A stretch of 64,000 bases of DNA, from the NCBI GenBank assembly GCA_033239445.1, contig GCA_033239445.1_3953.1. One strand, 5' to 3'. A model generated the notes under the pieces. That model was not told the DNA's origin. It made no database searches and saw nothing but the letters and a program-made list of their open reading frames with translations. Of the stretch, positions 13,709 to 34,799 are shown one piece after another. The translations under genes and the position numbers were made by a program. The stretch's first letter is position 1. The number at the start of each line of letters is the position of its first letter. The DNA comes from a phage.

Positions 13709-13716
13709 GACTATAC

Positions 13717-13740
13717 AGCCCCTTAATTGGGGCTTTTTAT
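13717..13740 (+). terminator. rho-independent terminator
   Basis: agcccc-ttaatt-ggggct hairpin followed by TTTTTATT. Confidence 0.6.
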
Positions 13741-15224
13741 TGAGTAAAATTTACGAAATTTATAATTTTTATAAAATTTGGGATTCACTCCGTTCATCTT
13801 GGGTCACCATGATATGTGATAAAATATCTATACCCTTCTAAACACCCTCTCTAAGCATCATCTCTATATAGTATTATATAGTATTATATAGTATCTATAT
13901 AGCCTCTTAGTCCCTAAATAGTGCTCTCTATATAGCCCTCTATAAAGCCTTCTAAGCCTACCATTAATCAACCCTATACAATCACCTTCCTAACCTCTTC
14001 CTAGCCCCTTAGAAGCCCCTATACTCATCTTAATCTCTAGGTAAACGATAGTACCCTATATAGCAGAATCACTAGGTATTACTAAGCCTCTATATAGACT
14101 GTTATATAGCACTAAACAGGTATTCCCTGTAAAGGCTTATCCTACAAGGTCTAACACGGTACTAACAAGGTCTCTTATAAGCCTGTTAATTCCTGTTTTA
14201 TATAAGATAGTGTATAGATAGTTATTCAGAATTATAAAATTTTTATAAAATAGACTAGGTAGGTTACTTTTTAGGGTCTTTGGAGAATCTGAAAAATATC
14301 TACAGAGGATGTATATCTGCTTGGTAGCCCTTAACAGCCCTGTAACATCCCCTTTGCAAAATCTTAAAATATCATTAACAATCTCTTAACAACTCTTCCA
14401 AGTCCTTAACATCTCTCCAGAGTTCTTAACAGTCTCTTAACAGAACTAACAAGAGCTTAACAAGTCTGTAACATTACTAACAAGAGTCTAACAAGTTGCT
14501 TATAAGTTGCTAAATAGTTAAATCTTAAGAGTTATTTTGTTAAGATAATTAACAAGTTCTAAACCTTTTTAACAAGCTATTAACATGGTCACTATCTCTT
14601 GGTCTATAGTTCCTTATCCTTTCTTAGTGATTCTCTATAAAGCCCTGTATAGCTCTGTATAGCCTCTTCTAAGATTCTCCCTAGTAACTACACCCCAACT
14701 ACCTGTATAGCTCTTTGTAGGGCTTTCTAGGGGCTTATACAGGGACTTCAAAGAGTCTAACAAGCTCTTAACATACCACTAACAAGGATTTAACAAGGGG
14801 CTAACAAGCATAACTATGTTGCATTTGTTAAGATTTTGTTAAGAGAATGTAAAGGGGGCTAACTTTTACGTTACTTTTAAGCTCTTTTTAGACTCCATAA
14901 CATACTTTGAAGTAACTATCAAGCCCCTGTTTAACCATTCACAAGATTCTATCCAGCTTATAAGCTTATACCCTTATAAGATTCTTTTAAGGCTCTAGAA
15001 AGCTCTATAAAGGGTTTTTAAGAAGTGGTTAATATGATTGCTTAAGATGAGATGATAAGCCCGTATAGAGCGTTATAGAGCGTTTTAGGGATTGCCCTTC
15101 CCTTTCGGGTTATGGGCTTATATTTAAGTTGATTTGATAAGAGGATATAGAGTAAGCTATAGAGTTATTATTCTAAATGTATGGGATAGATTCTAGGAAG
15201 GTTTCTTTATAGACGTAAAAAGCC
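13741..15224. repeat. 1.5-kb non-coding region rich in short direct repeats (tattatatag x3, CTGTATAGC copies, about 15 YTAACAAG copies, tatagagcgt x2)
   Basis: No ORF of 60 aa or more on either strand; lies between the 3-prime ends of convergent gene blocks. Confidence 0.6.
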
Positions 15225-15250
15225 CCATCTAAGGGGCTGTAAAGGTGTCT
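15225..15250 (-). terminator. rho-independent terminator (minus strand)
   Basis: On the minus strand agcccc-ttagat-ggggct followed by TTTTTA. Confidence 0.55.
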
Positions 15251-15279
15251 GGGGCTATTTGCCCCGTTGCGGCGACTTG

Positions 15280-22856: not shown

Positions 22857-23651
22857 TTAGTTACGTGCTTCAACATAGTTTACGTCTTCATGTGTGATAT
22901 AATATTCTGCAAACTCTTCTGTAGTCGCATTGATATACACACTTGCATCATCACCAAACGTTACCGCTCTGTGGTAGTGGCCCTGTAACGGGTGGGTAAC
23001 TTGAGCGTTACTTTGATTGTACTTCTCAACCGGAGGGTAACTGGTGTGTACCTTGCCATTACGCTTCACCTTGAGGGTAACTTTATCCTTGCCTACCACA
23101 GCAACACCATCAAAGTATTGAGGCTCACTGAAGTTCTCCCAACCAGTAACAGGACTAGTCAACTGACTGTACATCTTATCTTCATAGACATACATATATA
23201 CGTCAACATCTTTCATGGTCTGATTAATAATGGACAGCACAGCCATACTATCAAGACCACCAATCCCTGCACCAATCATAGGGAGTCCAACCTTCTTAAG
23301 CTGGTTTACTTTACAGTAGTTGTTAAGACGCTGTAAAGCTGCTTCTAAGGCATTGTATCGTGCATTTTTTCCAGTGATAACCTGAGTATAAAGGTTAGCA
23401 ATTCGACCCTGCTTCAAACGTGCTACAGAGATGTTACCAAGCATTAGATGCTTAGGGTTATGGTTTTCACCACCTACTGTAGCATAAACTTCAGCGTCAG
23501 TTTCATAAGCTTTTGGGTAGCGTTTAGCAATTGTTGCTGCGATACCTGCACCCATCAAGTTCATGCAGTTACAACCGTGACCAATGATATCAAACTTCTT
23601 ACCATCAAAGTCTTTAAAGATATCACCTTTAATAATTTTTACGATACCCAT
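22857..23651 (-). CDS. macro-domain protein (putative ADP-ribose binding or hydrolase) with C-terminal extension
   Basis: N-terminal KGDIF ... DIIGHGCNCMNLMGAGIAATIAKRYP resembles the macro-domain core; start trimmed to ATG at 23651, which overlaps the upstream stop. Confidence 0.5.
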   Translation of the reverse strand: MGIVKIIKGDIFKDFDGKKFDIIGHGCNCMNLMGAGIAATIAKRYPKAYETDAEVYATVGGENHNPKHLMLGNISVARLKQGRIANLYTQVITGKNARYNALEAALQRLNNYCKVNQLKKVGLPMIGAGIGGLDSMAVLSIINQTMKDVDVYMYVYEDKMYSQLTSPVTGWENFSEPQYFDGVAVVGKDKVTLKVKRNGKVHTSYPPVEKYNQSNAQVTHPLQGHYHRAVTFGDDASVYINATTEEFAEYYITHEDVNYVEARN

Positions 23652-31165: not shown

Positions 31166-31177
31166 AAATTAAAAAGG

Positions 31178-31197
31178 CTCCCGTAGGAGCCTCTTAT
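31178..31197 (-). terminator. rho-independent terminator (minus strand)
   Basis: On the minus strand ggctcc-tacg-ggagcc followed by TTTTTAATTT. Confidence 0.65.
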
Positions 31198-31206
31198 CAT
31201 ACTGTT

Positions 31207-33024
31207 TTAAAGTTGCTTGTCAATAGTATTTCGAACATCACGCAGGTTAATGTAACCGTAAGGTTGCGAGTTGCTAAATACCAGTTTCAAAGCACTATGA
31301 CAGTTGTCAATTGCACCTTCAAACTCTGCAAAGCCAAAACCATCTACAGCTACCAGCTTGTCACCATCCCACATAGGGACAACTCCACCAAAAGCAGACT
31401 TCTTAAGACCACTGTCAGTTTTAGGGTCTTTAGCCAGCATAATTTCTTGACCATCCATCTGTGCAAGAGTTGCTTTAACAGCAAATGCAAAGGTGTCACG
31501 AGTCAGGTACTGATAGGTGTATGAGCCTACACCAAACACTACGTTAGAACTTGCAAAACCTTTATCAGCAAGACGTGACAGAATCTCATTAGCCCTTTCC
31601 AGAGTGATAGAATCACCGTAGATTAATCCAATGTGCTCATCCAGTACTTTGTACCCTTTGGAGTTAACAGTGCCACCAAAGATGTTATATAGCGTGTGGA
31701 TAGCTCCGTCAATTTCTGCTGTCAGCATACGCTTCACAGTAAACTGTCCAGTCTTCTGAGCAGTAATAAGGTTGATTGTATCAGCAGATTCAAAATCTTC
31801 TTTATCAACAACCATCTCATAACCTTCAGAGATTAGCCAAGCAGAGAACCCAAAGCCAATATCAGACATTTCACAATTCAAGATTGTGTCATGCAGATGT
31901 GTATTGTTCGGTGCAAGCTCTTTCATGTGCTTATAGAACATTGACTTAGCAGTTTCCCATTCAATGGCTTTGTAACCTGTGACAATGTGAACAGGGTCTC
32001 CAGAGTCTGGACGGATTACCAACTTACCATCACGATTCAGGATTACATTACGTAGCTCTGGCAGAATCTGTGTAACAGTACGCCAGAAGTTGTAAGTATC
32101 TGATACAACACTTGCAATACCAATTGGATAAACATCTACCAGAAGATGTTCAAAAGTTTTAACCTCACCACGCCAACGCATTGCATCAAGCAAGTTGTCA
32201 GATTGTGAAAGATGCCAATCACTTACCTCTTTGTTAAGACTGTTCCATGAGATATTTGCACACATCACAGAGTGCTCGGTGGCTGGGACAGAGTTGCCAA
32301 TCTCACCCACAGTCATATATTGACCATATGCACGTTTAGCTGTATACACAGCAGGGAAGCTGTCAGTACCTTTAAAACTTGTCAGGTGACCTACTGCGTT
32401 AAACGCATCATCTGTGAAGCCAGACATACCACGCATTGCAAAGTCATGACACTGCCAAGGTAAATGGAAGTCGTTGTCACAGGTCTTGTCAGCCCATTGC
32501 TTACAAATACGTTTGTAATGCAGTGCAATAGTTGCAATCGTACAAGCCTTCCAGATTTCAGCAGAGAAAGCATCTTCAAGGTAACCAGCTACCCAATGGA
32601 ATCCTTCTACAGTGTTTTTGAAGACAATCATCGGGACACGCATAGGGACAATTGTACCTTCCTCTACAGAGTAGACTTCAACAGGCAGGTAACCCAAGTC
32701 ATGAAGTTCTTCCCAATGTTGACGACCAATAGCATCTGCACCGAGAACACCATTCATGATTTCCAAGATTTCGTCAATGGCTTCTTTCTTATCACGTTCA
32801 AAGAACGTTGCATTCCAGTGGTCTACCAGATAGTCTTTTACAAAACGCTGAATACCAAAGGCTACAACACCATCAATCTCTAACGGAGAGTTAAACCATT
32901 TGTCTCCACGAGGGGTTAAGTTAAGCATAAGATACTGTGTAGCATCTGGATACTGGTAGATATGCCCCGCTTTATAAGCATCTGCATTAAGACCTGCTGG
33001 TACTGCATAGATTGATTTAGTCAT
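31207..33024 (-). CDS. nadV: nicotinamide phosphoribosyltransferase family protein (NAMPT/NadV-like; could equally be a Namat-type enzyme)
   Basis: 605 aa; AYKAGHIYQYPD, HDFAMRGMSG ... FKGTDS, VPATEHSVM, VVSDTYNFW and IRPDSGDP match remembered NAMPT blocks (SYKVTHYKQYPP, HDFGYRG ... FKGTDT, VPAAEHS, VVSDSYD, IRPDSGNP). Confidence 0.85.
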   Translation of the reverse strand: MTKSIYAVPAGLNADAYKAGHIYQYPDATQYLMLNLTPRGDKWFNSPLEIDGVVAFGIQRFVKDYLVDHWNATFFERDKKEAIDEILEIMNGVLGADAIGRQHWEELHDLGYLPVEVYSVEEGTIVPMRVPMIVFKNTVEGFHWVAGYLEDAFSAEIWKACTIATIALHYKRICKQWADKTCDNDFHLPWQCHDFAMRGMSGFTDDAFNAVGHLTSFKGTDSFPAVYTAKRAYGQYMTVGEIGNSVPATEHSVMCANISWNSLNKEVSDWHLSQSDNLLDAMRWRGEVKTFEHLLVDVYPIGIASVVSDTYNFWRTVTQILPELRNVILNRDGKLVIRPDSGDPVHIVTGYKAIEWETAKSMFYKHMKELAPNNTHLHDTILNCEMSDIGFGFSAWLISEGYEMVVDKEDFESADTINLITAQKTGQFTVKRMLTAEIDGAIHTLYNIFGGTVNSKGYKVLDEHIGLIYGDSITLERANEILSRLADKGFASSNVVFGVGSYTYQYLTRDTFAFAVKATLAQMDGQEIMLAKDPKTDSGLKKSAFGGVVPMWDGDKLVAVDGFGFAEFEGAIDNCHSALKLVFSNSQPYGYINLRDVRNTIDKQL

Positions 33025-33068
33025 CTTTTTATCTCTCTCAAAGTGGGGCTTTTCAGCCCCTAAAGTTG

Positions 33069-33968
33069 TTATTCAATATTTGCTACGGTCACTTGTGAGA
33101 AGTGGGAAAGACCACGGTCTTTTTCATCCCCTAGTGAGTTTGTAGTGTAGATATGGTCGATACCATTGTCAAGGAGATTTTCAACACCTTTAGAGAAAAT
33201 CCCATGAGTAACATAAAGCTCTACACGTTCTGCTCCAGCTTCACGAAGATACTTTGCAGCCTCGATAAAGGTTCGACCACCATCACAGATATCATCCAGA
33301 ATCATAACAGTCTTACCTGTTAAGTCTACATCATCAAGGATGCGCATACCAGTGATTTCACCAGTTTTCAGGTTTCGTACCTTCGCCATTGTAATATAAG
33401 GTTTCTCAACCTCTTTAGCAGCCTCTTCAGTCTTCTTAGCTGCACCTGCATCTGGAGCCACTAAGTAATCAATACGTGGGTCACTTGCAAAGTGGACTGC
33501 TGCCTCTTTTTGAGGGAGGTTGTAGAAGCTCTTAAACAAATTCTCTGCAACATTACTGTGAGTATCCAGAGCACATACTGCATCGAACTCCATAGCATTT
33601 ACAAGATTTGCAAAGACTTTAAGTGCTGCTGAATCACCTTTAAACATGTGACGGTCATAGCGAGCATTTGGTAAGAATCCAAAAAGAACAGTTTTCATGG
33701 TTGCTTTCTGAGGAATCAAGCGGTCAATAGCCTCTTTAGCCATAGCCAATGCAAAGAGTGTGTCTTTGTCATAACCTTGTACAGTGAAGATAACATTTTC
33801 AATCTTACCAGCAGCATGTTCAACAAAGCCTACTAAGTCTTCTGAGAAGTTACCACCAATCTCCCCAGAAGGGAACTGGATAATGTTGAAGGTCTCTTGA
33901 TGAGAACCTTTGGAATTTGAATTAAGTAGAACTCGAATAGTAGTTTTCATAATATATCTCTCAGTCAA
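33069..33968 (-). CDS. prs: ribose-phosphate pyrophosphokinase family protein (PRPP synthetase-like; could be an ADP-ribose pyrophosphokinase of the Adps type)
   Basis: 299 aa; FPSGE near N-terminus, VAPDAGAAKK, and PRPP-binding loop VMILDDICDGGRTF. Confidence 0.75.
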   Translation of the reverse strand: MTERYIMKTTIRVLLNSNSKGSHQETFNIIQFPSGEIGGNFSEDLVGFVEHAAGKIENVIFTVQGYDKDTLFALAMAKEAIDRLIPQKATMKTVLFGFLPNARYDRHMFKGDSAALKVFANLVNAMEFDAVCALDTHSNVAENLFKSFYNLPQKEAAVHFASDPRIDYLVAPDAGAAKKTEEAAKEVEKPYITMAKVRNLKTGEITGMRILDDVDLTGKTVMILDDICDGGRTFIEAAKYLREAGAERVELYVTHGIFSKGVENLLDNGIDHIYTTNSLGDEKDRGLSHFSQVTVANIE

Positions 33969-34266
33969 AAGTTACAAATGTTACAGCCATAGCTGATTTA
34001 CATTTCTTTGGGTCTACAATGTGGTAGATAACTGAACAGTTTCCTGTTCCGTCTGGTACTGGTTTTGTCCAAGTACGTTCAATATTTGGCTCTCCAAACT
34101 CTTTATAGAATCCGTTGGAGTAGTGGTCTATCATCTCAATAGCAAGTGCATCTGGGACGTGACCACGTATCATATACATCTCACTACCATTTCCAGCTTC
34201 ACTAATAAGCTCTTTGATATCCCATTGTTCTCTAGCCATGATAAGTTGCCTCATAAACTGTCTCAA
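33961..34266 (-). CDS. hypothetical protein
   Basis: 101 aa ORF. Confidence 0.45.
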   Translation of the reverse strand: MRQFMRQLIMAREQWDIKELISEAGNGSEMYMIRGHVPDALAIEMIDHYSNGFYKEFGEPNIERTWTKPVPDGTGNCSVIYHIVDPKKCKSAMAVTFVTFD

Positions 34267-34747
34267 GCTTCAACAAGAGTGATATTGCCAGAACTGCATA
34301 TTCCCTGTCAAGCATTGGTGGCATATTATTTTTGAGATATGCTTTCTGTTCCTCCCAAGTCATCTTAGGGGCTTCTGGAAGCTTCTCTCCCTGCTTCTGG
34401 TTATCTTCTTGAGTCTGGATAAACCAGTTCGAGCAATGGTGCTCTCCACCTTTTGTCACGGGCTTATGGTGGCCTAATGTGAAAGCTTTCTTTCCAGAAT
34501 ATCTACAAAGCTTATTAAGGGTTGCAATAGTGTTCTTGACAACGCAGTATTCATAGAGGTTGTCAATAGTGTAATGAGGGTAGTACTGAAACAAGGCACT
34601 ATCACGGAACTTACCACGATTCCAAAGCACCATGTGATTAGAATTTGAAGGGTCATACTGATGTGACTCGATGAACTCTTGACGCTCATCAAAATCAAGA
34701 CGAAGAACAGACATTGCAGCAGCACGTTTCAGATTTGAATGGTACAT
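34232..34747 (-). CDS. possible HNH-family nuclease
   Basis: 171 aa; LGHHKPVTKGGEHHCSNW resembles an HNH core (HH ... P ... KGG ... N). Confidence 0.35.
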   Translation of the reverse strand: MYHSNLKRAAAMSVLRLDFDERQEFIESHQYDPSNSNHMVLWNRGKFRDSALFQYYPHYTIDNLYEYCVVKNTIATLNKLCRYSGKKAFTLGHHKPVTKGGEHHCSNWFIQTQEDNQKQGEKLPEAPKMTWEEQKAYLKNNMPPMLDREYAVLAISLLLKLETVYEATYHG

Positions 34748-34761
34748 GATTTCTCCAAAAT

Positions 34762-34785
34762 AAAAAGGGAACCTTTTACAGTTCC
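34762..34785 (-). terminator. rho-independent terminator (minus strand)
   Basis: On the minus strand gggaac-tgtaaaagg-ttccc followed by TTTTTTATTTT. Confidence 0.6.
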
Positions 34786-34799
34786 CTAATCATATACGC

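Follow-up and report, generated by a model that had tools for sequence, protein, structure and literature searches.

A stretch of phage DNA of 64,000 nucleotides (NCBI GenBank assembly GCA_033239445.1, contig GCA_033239445.1_3953.1; the whole stretch is referred to here as the window) carries on its minus strand two adjacent genes, adps and namat. We consider it very probable that this pair is the NARP1 anti-defence operon of a Mooglevirus/Felixounavirus-type phage, which would rebuild nicotinamide adenine dinucleotide (NAD+) directly from ADP-ribose and nicotinamide. A first-pass annotation of the window had proposed that the pair is an NAD+ reconstitution module and had left two routes open, namely classical salvage through nicotinamide mononucleotide (NMN) or the direct route from ADP-ribose and nicotinamide. 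The proposal of a module stands, and of the two routes the direct one is favoured because the genes are orthologous to genes 79-80 of phage Bas63, because the Nampt-family protein carries the clamp motif of Namat, and because no NMN adenylyltransferase (NMNAT) was found in the window. The activities of these particular proteins we infer from those of their orthologues. The core of this finding is not new, since near-identical operons have already been catalogued and the founding experiments were carried out in the same phage subfamily; the novelty implied by the first-pass annotation was thus overestimated, the operon of near-identical phages being already tabulated as NARP1.

The two genes, with their predicted products, are as follows:

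31207..33024, minus strand: namat, nicotinamide ADP-ribose transferase, Nampt family, 605 amino acids

33069..33950, minus strand: adps, ADP-ribose diphosphokinase (ADPR-PP synthetase), Prs family, 293 amino acids from ATG 33950

NARP1 was discovered by Osterman et al. in the operon formed by genes 79-80 of Escherichia phage Bas63 (JohannRWettstein, Felixounavirus, accession MZ501086; bioRxiv 10.1101/2024.02.11.579819). Specifically, with purified enzymes of phage SPbetaL1, Adps converts ADP-ribose and ATP to ADP-ribose pyrophosphate (ADPR-PP), and Namat converts ADPR-PP and nicotinamide to NAD+ (bioRxiv 10.1101/2024.02.11.579819). In the same study deletion of genes 79-80 makes Bas63 sensitive to SIR2-HerA, the rescue afforded by Bas63 NARP1 is independent of host pncC and nadR, and in metabolomics of Bas63 ADPR-PP was seen only when the operon and the defence were present together (bioRxiv 10.1101/2024.02.11.579819). 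Its supplementary tables list proteins of Sf19, Sf13, Mordin, Michonne and Bas63 as Adps and 'Adps-associated' Namat, and the row for Sf19 Adps gives Namat adjacency as 'Yes' (bioRxiv 10.1101/2024.02.11.579819).

If the window pair works in the same way, its substrates would be supplied by host defences (SIR2-HerA, Thoeris, DSR1/2, SEFIR) that cleave NAD+ to ADP-ribose and nicotinamide. Adps, as a diverged Prs, would pyrophosphorylate ADP-ribose at its 1'' position, with ATP as the donor, to give ADPR-PP, and Namat, as a diverged Nampt, would use an adenine-binding clamp that favours ADPR-PP over phosphoribosyl pyrophosphate (PRPP). Namat would then swap the pyrophosphate for nicotinamide and yield NAD+ directly, and therefore no NMNAT would be needed. 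NARP1 rebuilds a metabolite that many abortive-infection systems destroy, and so neutralises whole defence classes at once.

The 605-amino-acid protein matches Pfam NAPRTase and NAMPT_N and is 75% identical to Bas63_0080 over its full length. Its best matches among sequences of the Protein Data Bank (PDB) are the Namat crystal structures 9W5W and 9W5X (417 bits), with lower scores for the canonical enzymes, that is, Haemophilus ducreyi NadV (HdNadV, PDB 9KE8, 339.5 bits), Xanthomonas Nampt (171 bits) and mammalian NAMPT (about 146 bits). The AlphaFold2 model of the protein has a pLDDT of 92.5 and a pTM of 0.91, and when it was submitted to Foldseek 9W5X/9W5W again ranked first (E = 3.6e-54, TM-target 0.95), followed by HdNadV and then by NAMPT. 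The protein also passes the NCBIfam model NF006629 (463 against a cut-off of 405), which cannot separate Namat from Nampt and so was not used for assignment.

Four segments of the predicted Namat are of particular relevance:

31495..31527, minus strand: selectivity-clamp helix motif (SCH), GSYTYQYLTRD, Namat residues 500-510

32896..32907, minus strand: predicted selectivity-clamp loop (SCL), G40-D41-K42-W43, Namat residues 40-43

32167..32253, minus strand: lineage-specific insertion 1, Namat residues ~258-286, 11 residues longer than in Bas63

31708..31971, minus strand: lineage-specific insertion 2, Namat residues ~352-439, a small alpha/beta domain

The SCH of the window protein aligns with GSFTYQYNTRD in SPbetaL1 Namat, and with GAQTYQRNTRD and GGALLQKVDRD in canonical HdNadV and the Nampt of Xanthomonas (Xcc Nampt), respectively; its aromatic positions are absent from both of these canonical enzymes. 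The motif is present in all 120 of the closest database homologues, and at its phi-3 position the window protein has Leu where the consensus is Asn or Val. The Namat-specific selectivity clamp also includes the SCL, the third residue of which is Arg, Lys or Tyr (PMC12774641). In Bas63 Namat this loop has a Lys followed by an aromatic residue, and an AF3 model shows stacking of the adenine by the fourth residue (PMC12774641). The alignment gives S-D-K-W for Bas63 and T-S-R40 for SPbetaL1, and the window protein has Lys-Trp as in Bas63, such that its K42-W43 sequence fits an adenine-stacking loop. Insertion 2 is absent from the Namats of SPbetaL1 and FADO and from enterobacterial chromosomal homologues.

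When the window Namat was aligned with those of Bas63, SPbetaL1, FADO and Vibrio phage Luma, the catalytic and NAD-contact residues were found to be invariant (D15, Y17, F195, R198, D221, H251, R338, D340, G470-D471, G500-S501 and T508-R509-D510). H251 corresponds to H243 of the Namat of Vibrio phage Gary, for which an H243A mutant has been described (10.64898/2026.01.28.702374). Since 9W5W/9W5X are the best matches by both sequence and fold, and since the SCH motif and the SCL K42-W43 match the Namat signature, sequence and predicted structure place the protein with Namat rather than with canonical Nampt.

For the shorter gene, the mechanically called open reading frame (ORF) runs from TTG 33968 to 33069 on the minus strand and encodes 299 amino acids. 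Both this ORF and that of namat (31207..33024, 605 amino acids) exist as two co-oriented minus-strand reading frames just as first annotated, but the length of 299 residues probably needs correcting, as the start is most likely ATG 33950, giving 293 residues. This start is preferred because Bas63 and Sf19 are annotated likewise, a GAGAG Shine-Dalgarno-like box lies upstream, and an 8-nt overlap with the preceding ORF is removed. The protein matches Pfam Pribosyltran and Pribosyl_synth, and PHROG families 448 and 619 match the products of the pair at E = 2e-197 and 4e-99, so that Pfam, PHROGs and NCBIfam agree with the initial NAMPT-family and PRPP-synthetase-family assignments.

Within the PRPP-synthetase family, the protein is 81% identical to Bas63_0079 across all 293 residues and differs from Sf19 Adps by a single residue, as compared with 23% identity to E. 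coli Prs. In phmmer comparisons it scored 534 bits with Bas63 Adps, 160 with a Klebsiella Namat-linked Prs-like protein, 118 with Luma Adps, 81 with SPbetaL1 Adps and 75 with FADO Adps, against 54 bits with E. coli Prs; thus every validated or operon-linked Adps that was compared outscores E. coli Prs. A sequence search of the PDB returned no solved Adps among the structures, the best solved Prs reaching 64 bits. With NCBIfam, the one model whose cut-off the protein reaches is TIGR01251, for the broad subfamily (128 against a cut-off of 113), and the protein falls below the cut-offs of all the Prs equivalog models by a wide margin (for example 105 against 296). An identity as housekeeping class I ribose-phosphate diphosphokinase (Prs) was rejected on the failure of all of these equivalog models, and the sequence places the short protein in the Adps clade, distinct from housekeeping Prs. 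One further residue supports conservation of function:

33381..33383, minus strand: codon of Adps Lys190, in the same alignment column as K162 of SPbetaL1 Adps and K192 of Vibrio phage Gary Adps

K190 also aligns with K192 of Luma. Alanine mutants of SPbetaL1 K162 and Gary K192 lose activity (bioRxiv 10.1101/2024.02.11.579819; supplement of 10.64898/2026.01.28.702374). Judged by alignment, the functionally validated residues are therefore kept in the window proteins, namely K190 in Adps and H251 and R338 in Namat.

The adps-namat region is 98.4% identical to that of Shigella phage Sf19 (Ounavirinae, Mooglevirus), and matches to it were obtained in 262 phage records, nearly all of them from Ounavirinae of Escherichia, Salmonella, Shigella or Citrobacter. 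In addition, a 25-kb segment of the window is 96-98.5% identical to Sf17, Sf18 and Henu11 across about 80% of its length, and by these sequence matches the window belongs to a Mooglevirus-type Ounavirinae phage. Its gene order (NrdG, two small genes, adps, namat, two small genes, rIIA, rIIB) is common to Bas63. The close GenBank records all name the pair 'ribose-phosphate pyrophosphokinase' and 'nicotinamide phosphoribosyltransferase', labels that should read Adps and Namat. This relabelling matters for predicting the host range of therapeutic phages of Shigella, E. coli and Citrobacter on strains with SIR2, TIR or SEFIR NADases.

A different reading of the pair is that it performs classical salvage, in which the Prs-like protein makes PRPP from ribose-5-phosphate, the Nampt-like protein makes NMN, and host NadR/PncC-NadD or a phage NMNAT completes NAD+. 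We regard this as very unlikely, even though the annotations of Pfam, PHROG and NCBIfam do read Prs and Nampt and both TIGR01251 and NF006629 are passed. SPbetaL1 Adps given ribose-5-phosphate and ATP yielded no product (figure legend; bioRxiv 10.1101/2024.02.11.579819), and the finding that SPbetaL1 Namat makes NMN from PRPP in vitro, which speaks for salvage, is set against the finding that with both donors present Namat makes NAD+ only (bioRxiv 10.1101/2024.02.11.579819). Moreover, the window Namat carries an adenine clamp that is missing from canonical Nampts. As for an NMNAT, the absence first noted from motifs was borne out, since a Pfam scan of the 105 ORFs of the 64-kb window found no CTP_transf_like (NMNAT) and no NUDIX match, and a scan of the window in all frames found no GxFxPx[HT]xxH motif. 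Two HxGH motif matches were rejected as NMNAT for their wrong context; one of them lies in a protein of 171 amino acids (34232-34747, minus strand) encoded two genes upstream of adps, which has an HNH-like 'GHHKPVTKGGEHHCSNW' stretch and no Pfam match. The window covers about 64 kb of a genome of roughly 90 kb, and the ~26 kb beyond it could be held to favour salvage, but no phage has both NARP1 and NARP2 in the published census. Thus the findings that the first-pass annotation had named as weighing against a module of this kind, clustering with canonical Nampt and Prs together with a phage NMNAT elsewhere, were not encountered within the window. NARP2 itself, as in Vibrio phage KVP40 (the Nampt NadV with the Nmnat NatV), likewise reconstitutes NAD+ in a phage with a Nampt-family enzyme, but it uses PRPP and needs an Nmnat. 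It is not supported here, as no Nmnat is encoded within the window, Adps adjoins, and the Nampt-family protein carries the Namat clamp and does not belong to the PRPP-preferring clade of KVP40.

It could also be argued from the neighbourhood that the pair has no anti-defence role and boosts nucleotide metabolism, supplying PRPP or NMN for phage nucleotide synthesis together with the Nrd, Td and dihydrofolate reductase (DHFR) module, as the block that holds adps and namat also holds NrdA, NrdB, NrdD, NrdG, glutaredoxin, thymidylate synthase, DHFR and dNMP kinase. The deletion phenotype of the Bas63 orthologue is, to the contrary, defence-specific, with no excess NAD+ made when no defence system is present (bioRxiv 10.1101/2024.02.11.579819), and no product was formed by the homologous Adps in the assay given in the figure legend as ribose-5-phosphate plus ATP. 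We regard this explanation as extremely improbable. Some points do weigh against the preferred NARP1 assignment. The biochemical support comes from orthologues and not from the window proteins themselves, and the enzymes that were purified and crystallised, those of SPbetaL1, are only ~30% (Adps) and ~45% (Namat) identical to them; Bas63 Adps could not be purified (bioRxiv 10.1101/2024.02.11.579819). SPbetaL1 Namat keeps its PRPP to NMN activity in vitro (bioRxiv 10.1101/2024.02.11.579819), and given this use of PRPP some classical salvage flux alongside NARP1 is possible. The window Namat also carries its two insertions, of ~29 and ~88 residues, and the absence of an NMNAT from the remaining ~26 kb rests on the published census and not on the window sequence. 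Finally, the phmmer margin of the Bacillus-phage Adps over Prs is modest, and the assignment as Adps therefore draws chiefly on the orthology with Bas63 and on the tree and table that have been published.

Among characterised systems, the putative window operon is most readily compared with NARP1 of Bas63, with which it shares the subfamily Ounavirinae, the gene order and neighbours, a hairpin in the spacer between the genes, the K-W SCL, the SCH, and a long Namat with both insertions. It differs in that Bas63 Namat has 593 residues as compared with 605, insertion 1 of the window being 11 residues longer, in that the SCH phi-3 residue is Met in Bas63 and Leu in the window, and in genus, Bas63 being a Felixounavirus and the window Mooglevirus-type. 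NARP1 of Bacillus phage SPbetaL1 has the same two-gene order, the same NAD-contact and catalytic residues, the SCH motif and the equivalent Adps lysine (K162, corresponding to K190), and its Namat (9W5X, 9W5W; PMC12774641) is the top sequence and fold match of the window Namat. In contrast, SPbetaL1 Namat is shorter at 491 residues and lacks both insertions, its SCL has Arg40 in place of Lys-Trp, and its adps and namat abut without a spacer or hairpin. Canonical Nampt/NadV enzymes (H. ducreyi NadV, 9KE8; Xanthomonas Nampt, 7YQO) and E. coli Prs have the folds and core catalytic residues in common with the window proteins, but the former are without the aromatic SCH positions and the latter is distant, as its identity and score given above indicate.

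The closest 'short' relatives are chromosomal and come from Klebsiella, Phytobacter, Kosakonia and Erwinia; outside the Ounavirinae, the nearest relatives of the window Namat are those of the Klebsiella-type chromosomes. In the Klebsiella-type locus a gene for a Prs-like protein of 284 amino acids (46% identical to the window Adps) is accompanied by a gene for a Nampt-like protein of 496 amino acids with the Namat SCH motif. These genes are divergent from a gene for an NrtR-type regulator (NUDIX and WHD_NrtR), and the locus is flanked by core genes, with crp/prkB on one side and ABC-F/kefB/slyD on the other. Such an arrangement points to a housekeeping NARP1 of Enterobacteriaceae that responds to ADP-ribose. 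The occurrence of NARP1 in bacteria outside prophages, and its possible connection to ADP-ribose-responsive regulation, have been mentioned before (bioRxiv 10.1101/2024.02.11.579819).

Returning to the window, adps is followed by namat on the minus strand, the two being adjacent and co-oriented, and the spacer of 44 nt with a hairpin that was described at the outset is confirmed at 33025-33068. The region contains two RNA structures:

33045-33060, minus strand: intergenic RNA hairpin GGGGCU-GAAA-AGCCCC, inside the adps-namat spacer

31172..31195, minus strand: intrinsic terminator GGCUCC-UACG-GGAGCC then UUUUUAAUUU, directly after the namat stop codon, found by a terminator scan

The spacer hairpin has a folding energy of -12.8 kcal/mol (z = -3.46), none of 200 shuffled sequences folding equally well, and a GAGAGAG ribosome-binding region for namat lies 3' of it. 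Its stem is invariant in the Felixounavirus and Mooglevirus relatives Bas63, wV8, SUT_S720 and Sf19, while the loop varies; with the stem invariant across relatives, covariation is uninformative. In Erwinia phage Coenus the adps-namat spacer is 13 nt long and has no hairpin. The terminator scan did not call the spacer hairpin, since no run of at least five U follows it, and it is not a canonical terminator. The structure after namat, on the other hand, has an energy of -18.2 kcal/mol (z = -4.0). From the gene arrangement and from the presence of a terminator only after namat we infer that adps and namat are probably cotranscribed, in a unit ending at the 31195..31172 terminator. A promoter scan of the window gave 19 sigma-70-like sites, as compared with 14.3 +/- 4.2 in shuffled sequences, with no enrichment and no assignable promoter for the operon.

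A further terminator-like hairpin is found at 34766-34787 on the minus strand, just upstream of the gene for the 171-amino-acid protein (34232-34747). The position of this hairpin (34787..34766) suggests that transcription of the unit terminated after namat may begin ahead of the two small genes that precede adps. In related phages the spacer between adps and namat is a hot spot for insertions: in Salmonella virus VSe102 an HNH homing endonuclease directly follows adps, and in Sf17, Sf18, KMM2 and Mordin the operon is matched in two pieces, with additional hypothetical ORFs at the spacer.

The remaining question concerns a macro-domain gene elsewhere in the window, which may be an unlinked accessory gene of the pathway:

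22857..23651, minus strand: macro-domain gene, Poa1p/Adpp-like, 264 amino acids

This gene, which had been noted at the start as fitting an ADP-ribose/NAD+ theme, is confirmed by a Pfam Macro match (E = 3e-8) that exceeds the gathering score, and lies on the same strand as namat, 7.5 kb and 14 genes downstream of it. The macro domain occupies residues 1-156; for the rest of the protein, a C-terminal extension of ~105 residues (residues ~157-264; 22857-23180), no Pfam or PDB match was found. Among the matches listed, the full-length protein (256 records covering at least 80% of the query) occurs only in Ounavirinae-type phages, and it is 64% identical to Bas63_0095, a 'putative phosphatase'. 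Its best PDB match is yeast Poa1p, an ADP-ribose-1''-phosphate (ADPR-1''-P) phosphatase (E = 4.6e-5).

It has been reported that cleavage of NAD+ by the aRES defence gives ADPR-1''-P, a product that is of no use to NARP1, and that a Poa1p-like macro phosphatase, Adpp, present in 15% of NARP1 operons, restores the pathway, the combination being known as NARP1-AP (10.64898/2026.01.28.702374). ADPR-1''-P phosphatase activity and rescue from aRES have been shown for the Gary protein alone (10.64898/2026.01.28.702374). The window macro protein is 31% identical to this validated Gary Adpp across all 158 of its residues (E = 8e-18), and the catalytic His24 of Gary Adpp is kept as His25 in an HxCNC motif. 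Vibrio phage Luma has an Adpp near-identical to that of Gary, located between adps and namat.

We therefore put forward, tentatively and as a possibility against which the odds still lie, that the window encodes a split NARP1-AP, in which the macro protein would convert the aRES product ADPR-1''-P to ADP-ribose for Adps, such that the phage would also overcome aRES. This proposal adds to the NARP1 reading and the two are compatible. The end-to-end homology with Gary Adpp, the retained catalytic histidine, the Poa1p match, the conservation of the gene in Bas63 as a 'putative phosphatase' and its position on the NARP1 strand are all consistent with it, and E. coli, Shigella and Salmonella, which are hosts to this group of phages, are among the putative aRES-encoding genomes that have been listed (10.64898/2026.01.28.702374). 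The distance from the operon speaks against it. Both Gary NARP1-AP (Adps-Adpp-Namat) and the window have homologous Adps and Namat and a Poa1p-like macro protein with the catalytic histidine (10.64898/2026.01.28.702374), but in Gary and Luma the macro gene lies between adps and namat and encodes 158 residues, whereas that of the window lies outside the operon and encodes the additional extension. In the published census macro genes were counted only within two genes of the operon (10.64898/2026.01.28.702374), and the window gene falls outside this neighbourhood. The published NARP1-AP table, which spans two genes either side of the operon, contains no phage of Escherichia, Shigella or Salmonella. 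In addition, macro domains have many other ADP-ribose-related activities, and the family is not specific to NARP1, as it is found in 2779 phage records, including T-even Tk.4, as compared with 1240 records with Adps. Thus, the proposed fit to an ADP-ribose/NAD+ theme holds in so far as the protein is homologous to Adpp, and is weakened by the wide occurrence of the family in phages without NARP1, T-even Tk.4 among them. If the split arrangement is correct, Ounavirinae resist aRES even though the neighbourhood-based census omits them, and the census then underestimates the number of NARP1-AP phages. Whether Ounavirinae counter aRES through an unlinked Adpp is the sole part of this analysis that could add to existing knowledge.

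Several other features of the window were noted. A cluster of 16 tRNA genes lies at 48-2975 on the minus strand. One ORF somewhere within 33964-63819 matches Pfam PRA-PH (phosphoribosyl-ATP pyrophosphohydrolase / MazG-like; E = 1e-6) and is another gene of nucleotide-pyrophosphatase type in the window. At 13709-15279, where plus- and minus-strand gene blocks converge, there is a stretch of 1.5 kb without any ORF of at least 45 amino acids, for which an Rfam search gave no match. It is dense in short iterated motifs, namely YTAACAAG units at 11-nt spacing and CTaTATAG/CTGTATAG units at ~10-nt spacing, and is bounded by two GC hairpins that are mutually inverted copies (13711-13739 and 15216-15244). 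The stretch is kept in 256 Ounavirinae records, and its iteron-like sequence may mark an origin of replication or else a series of sites for protein binding.

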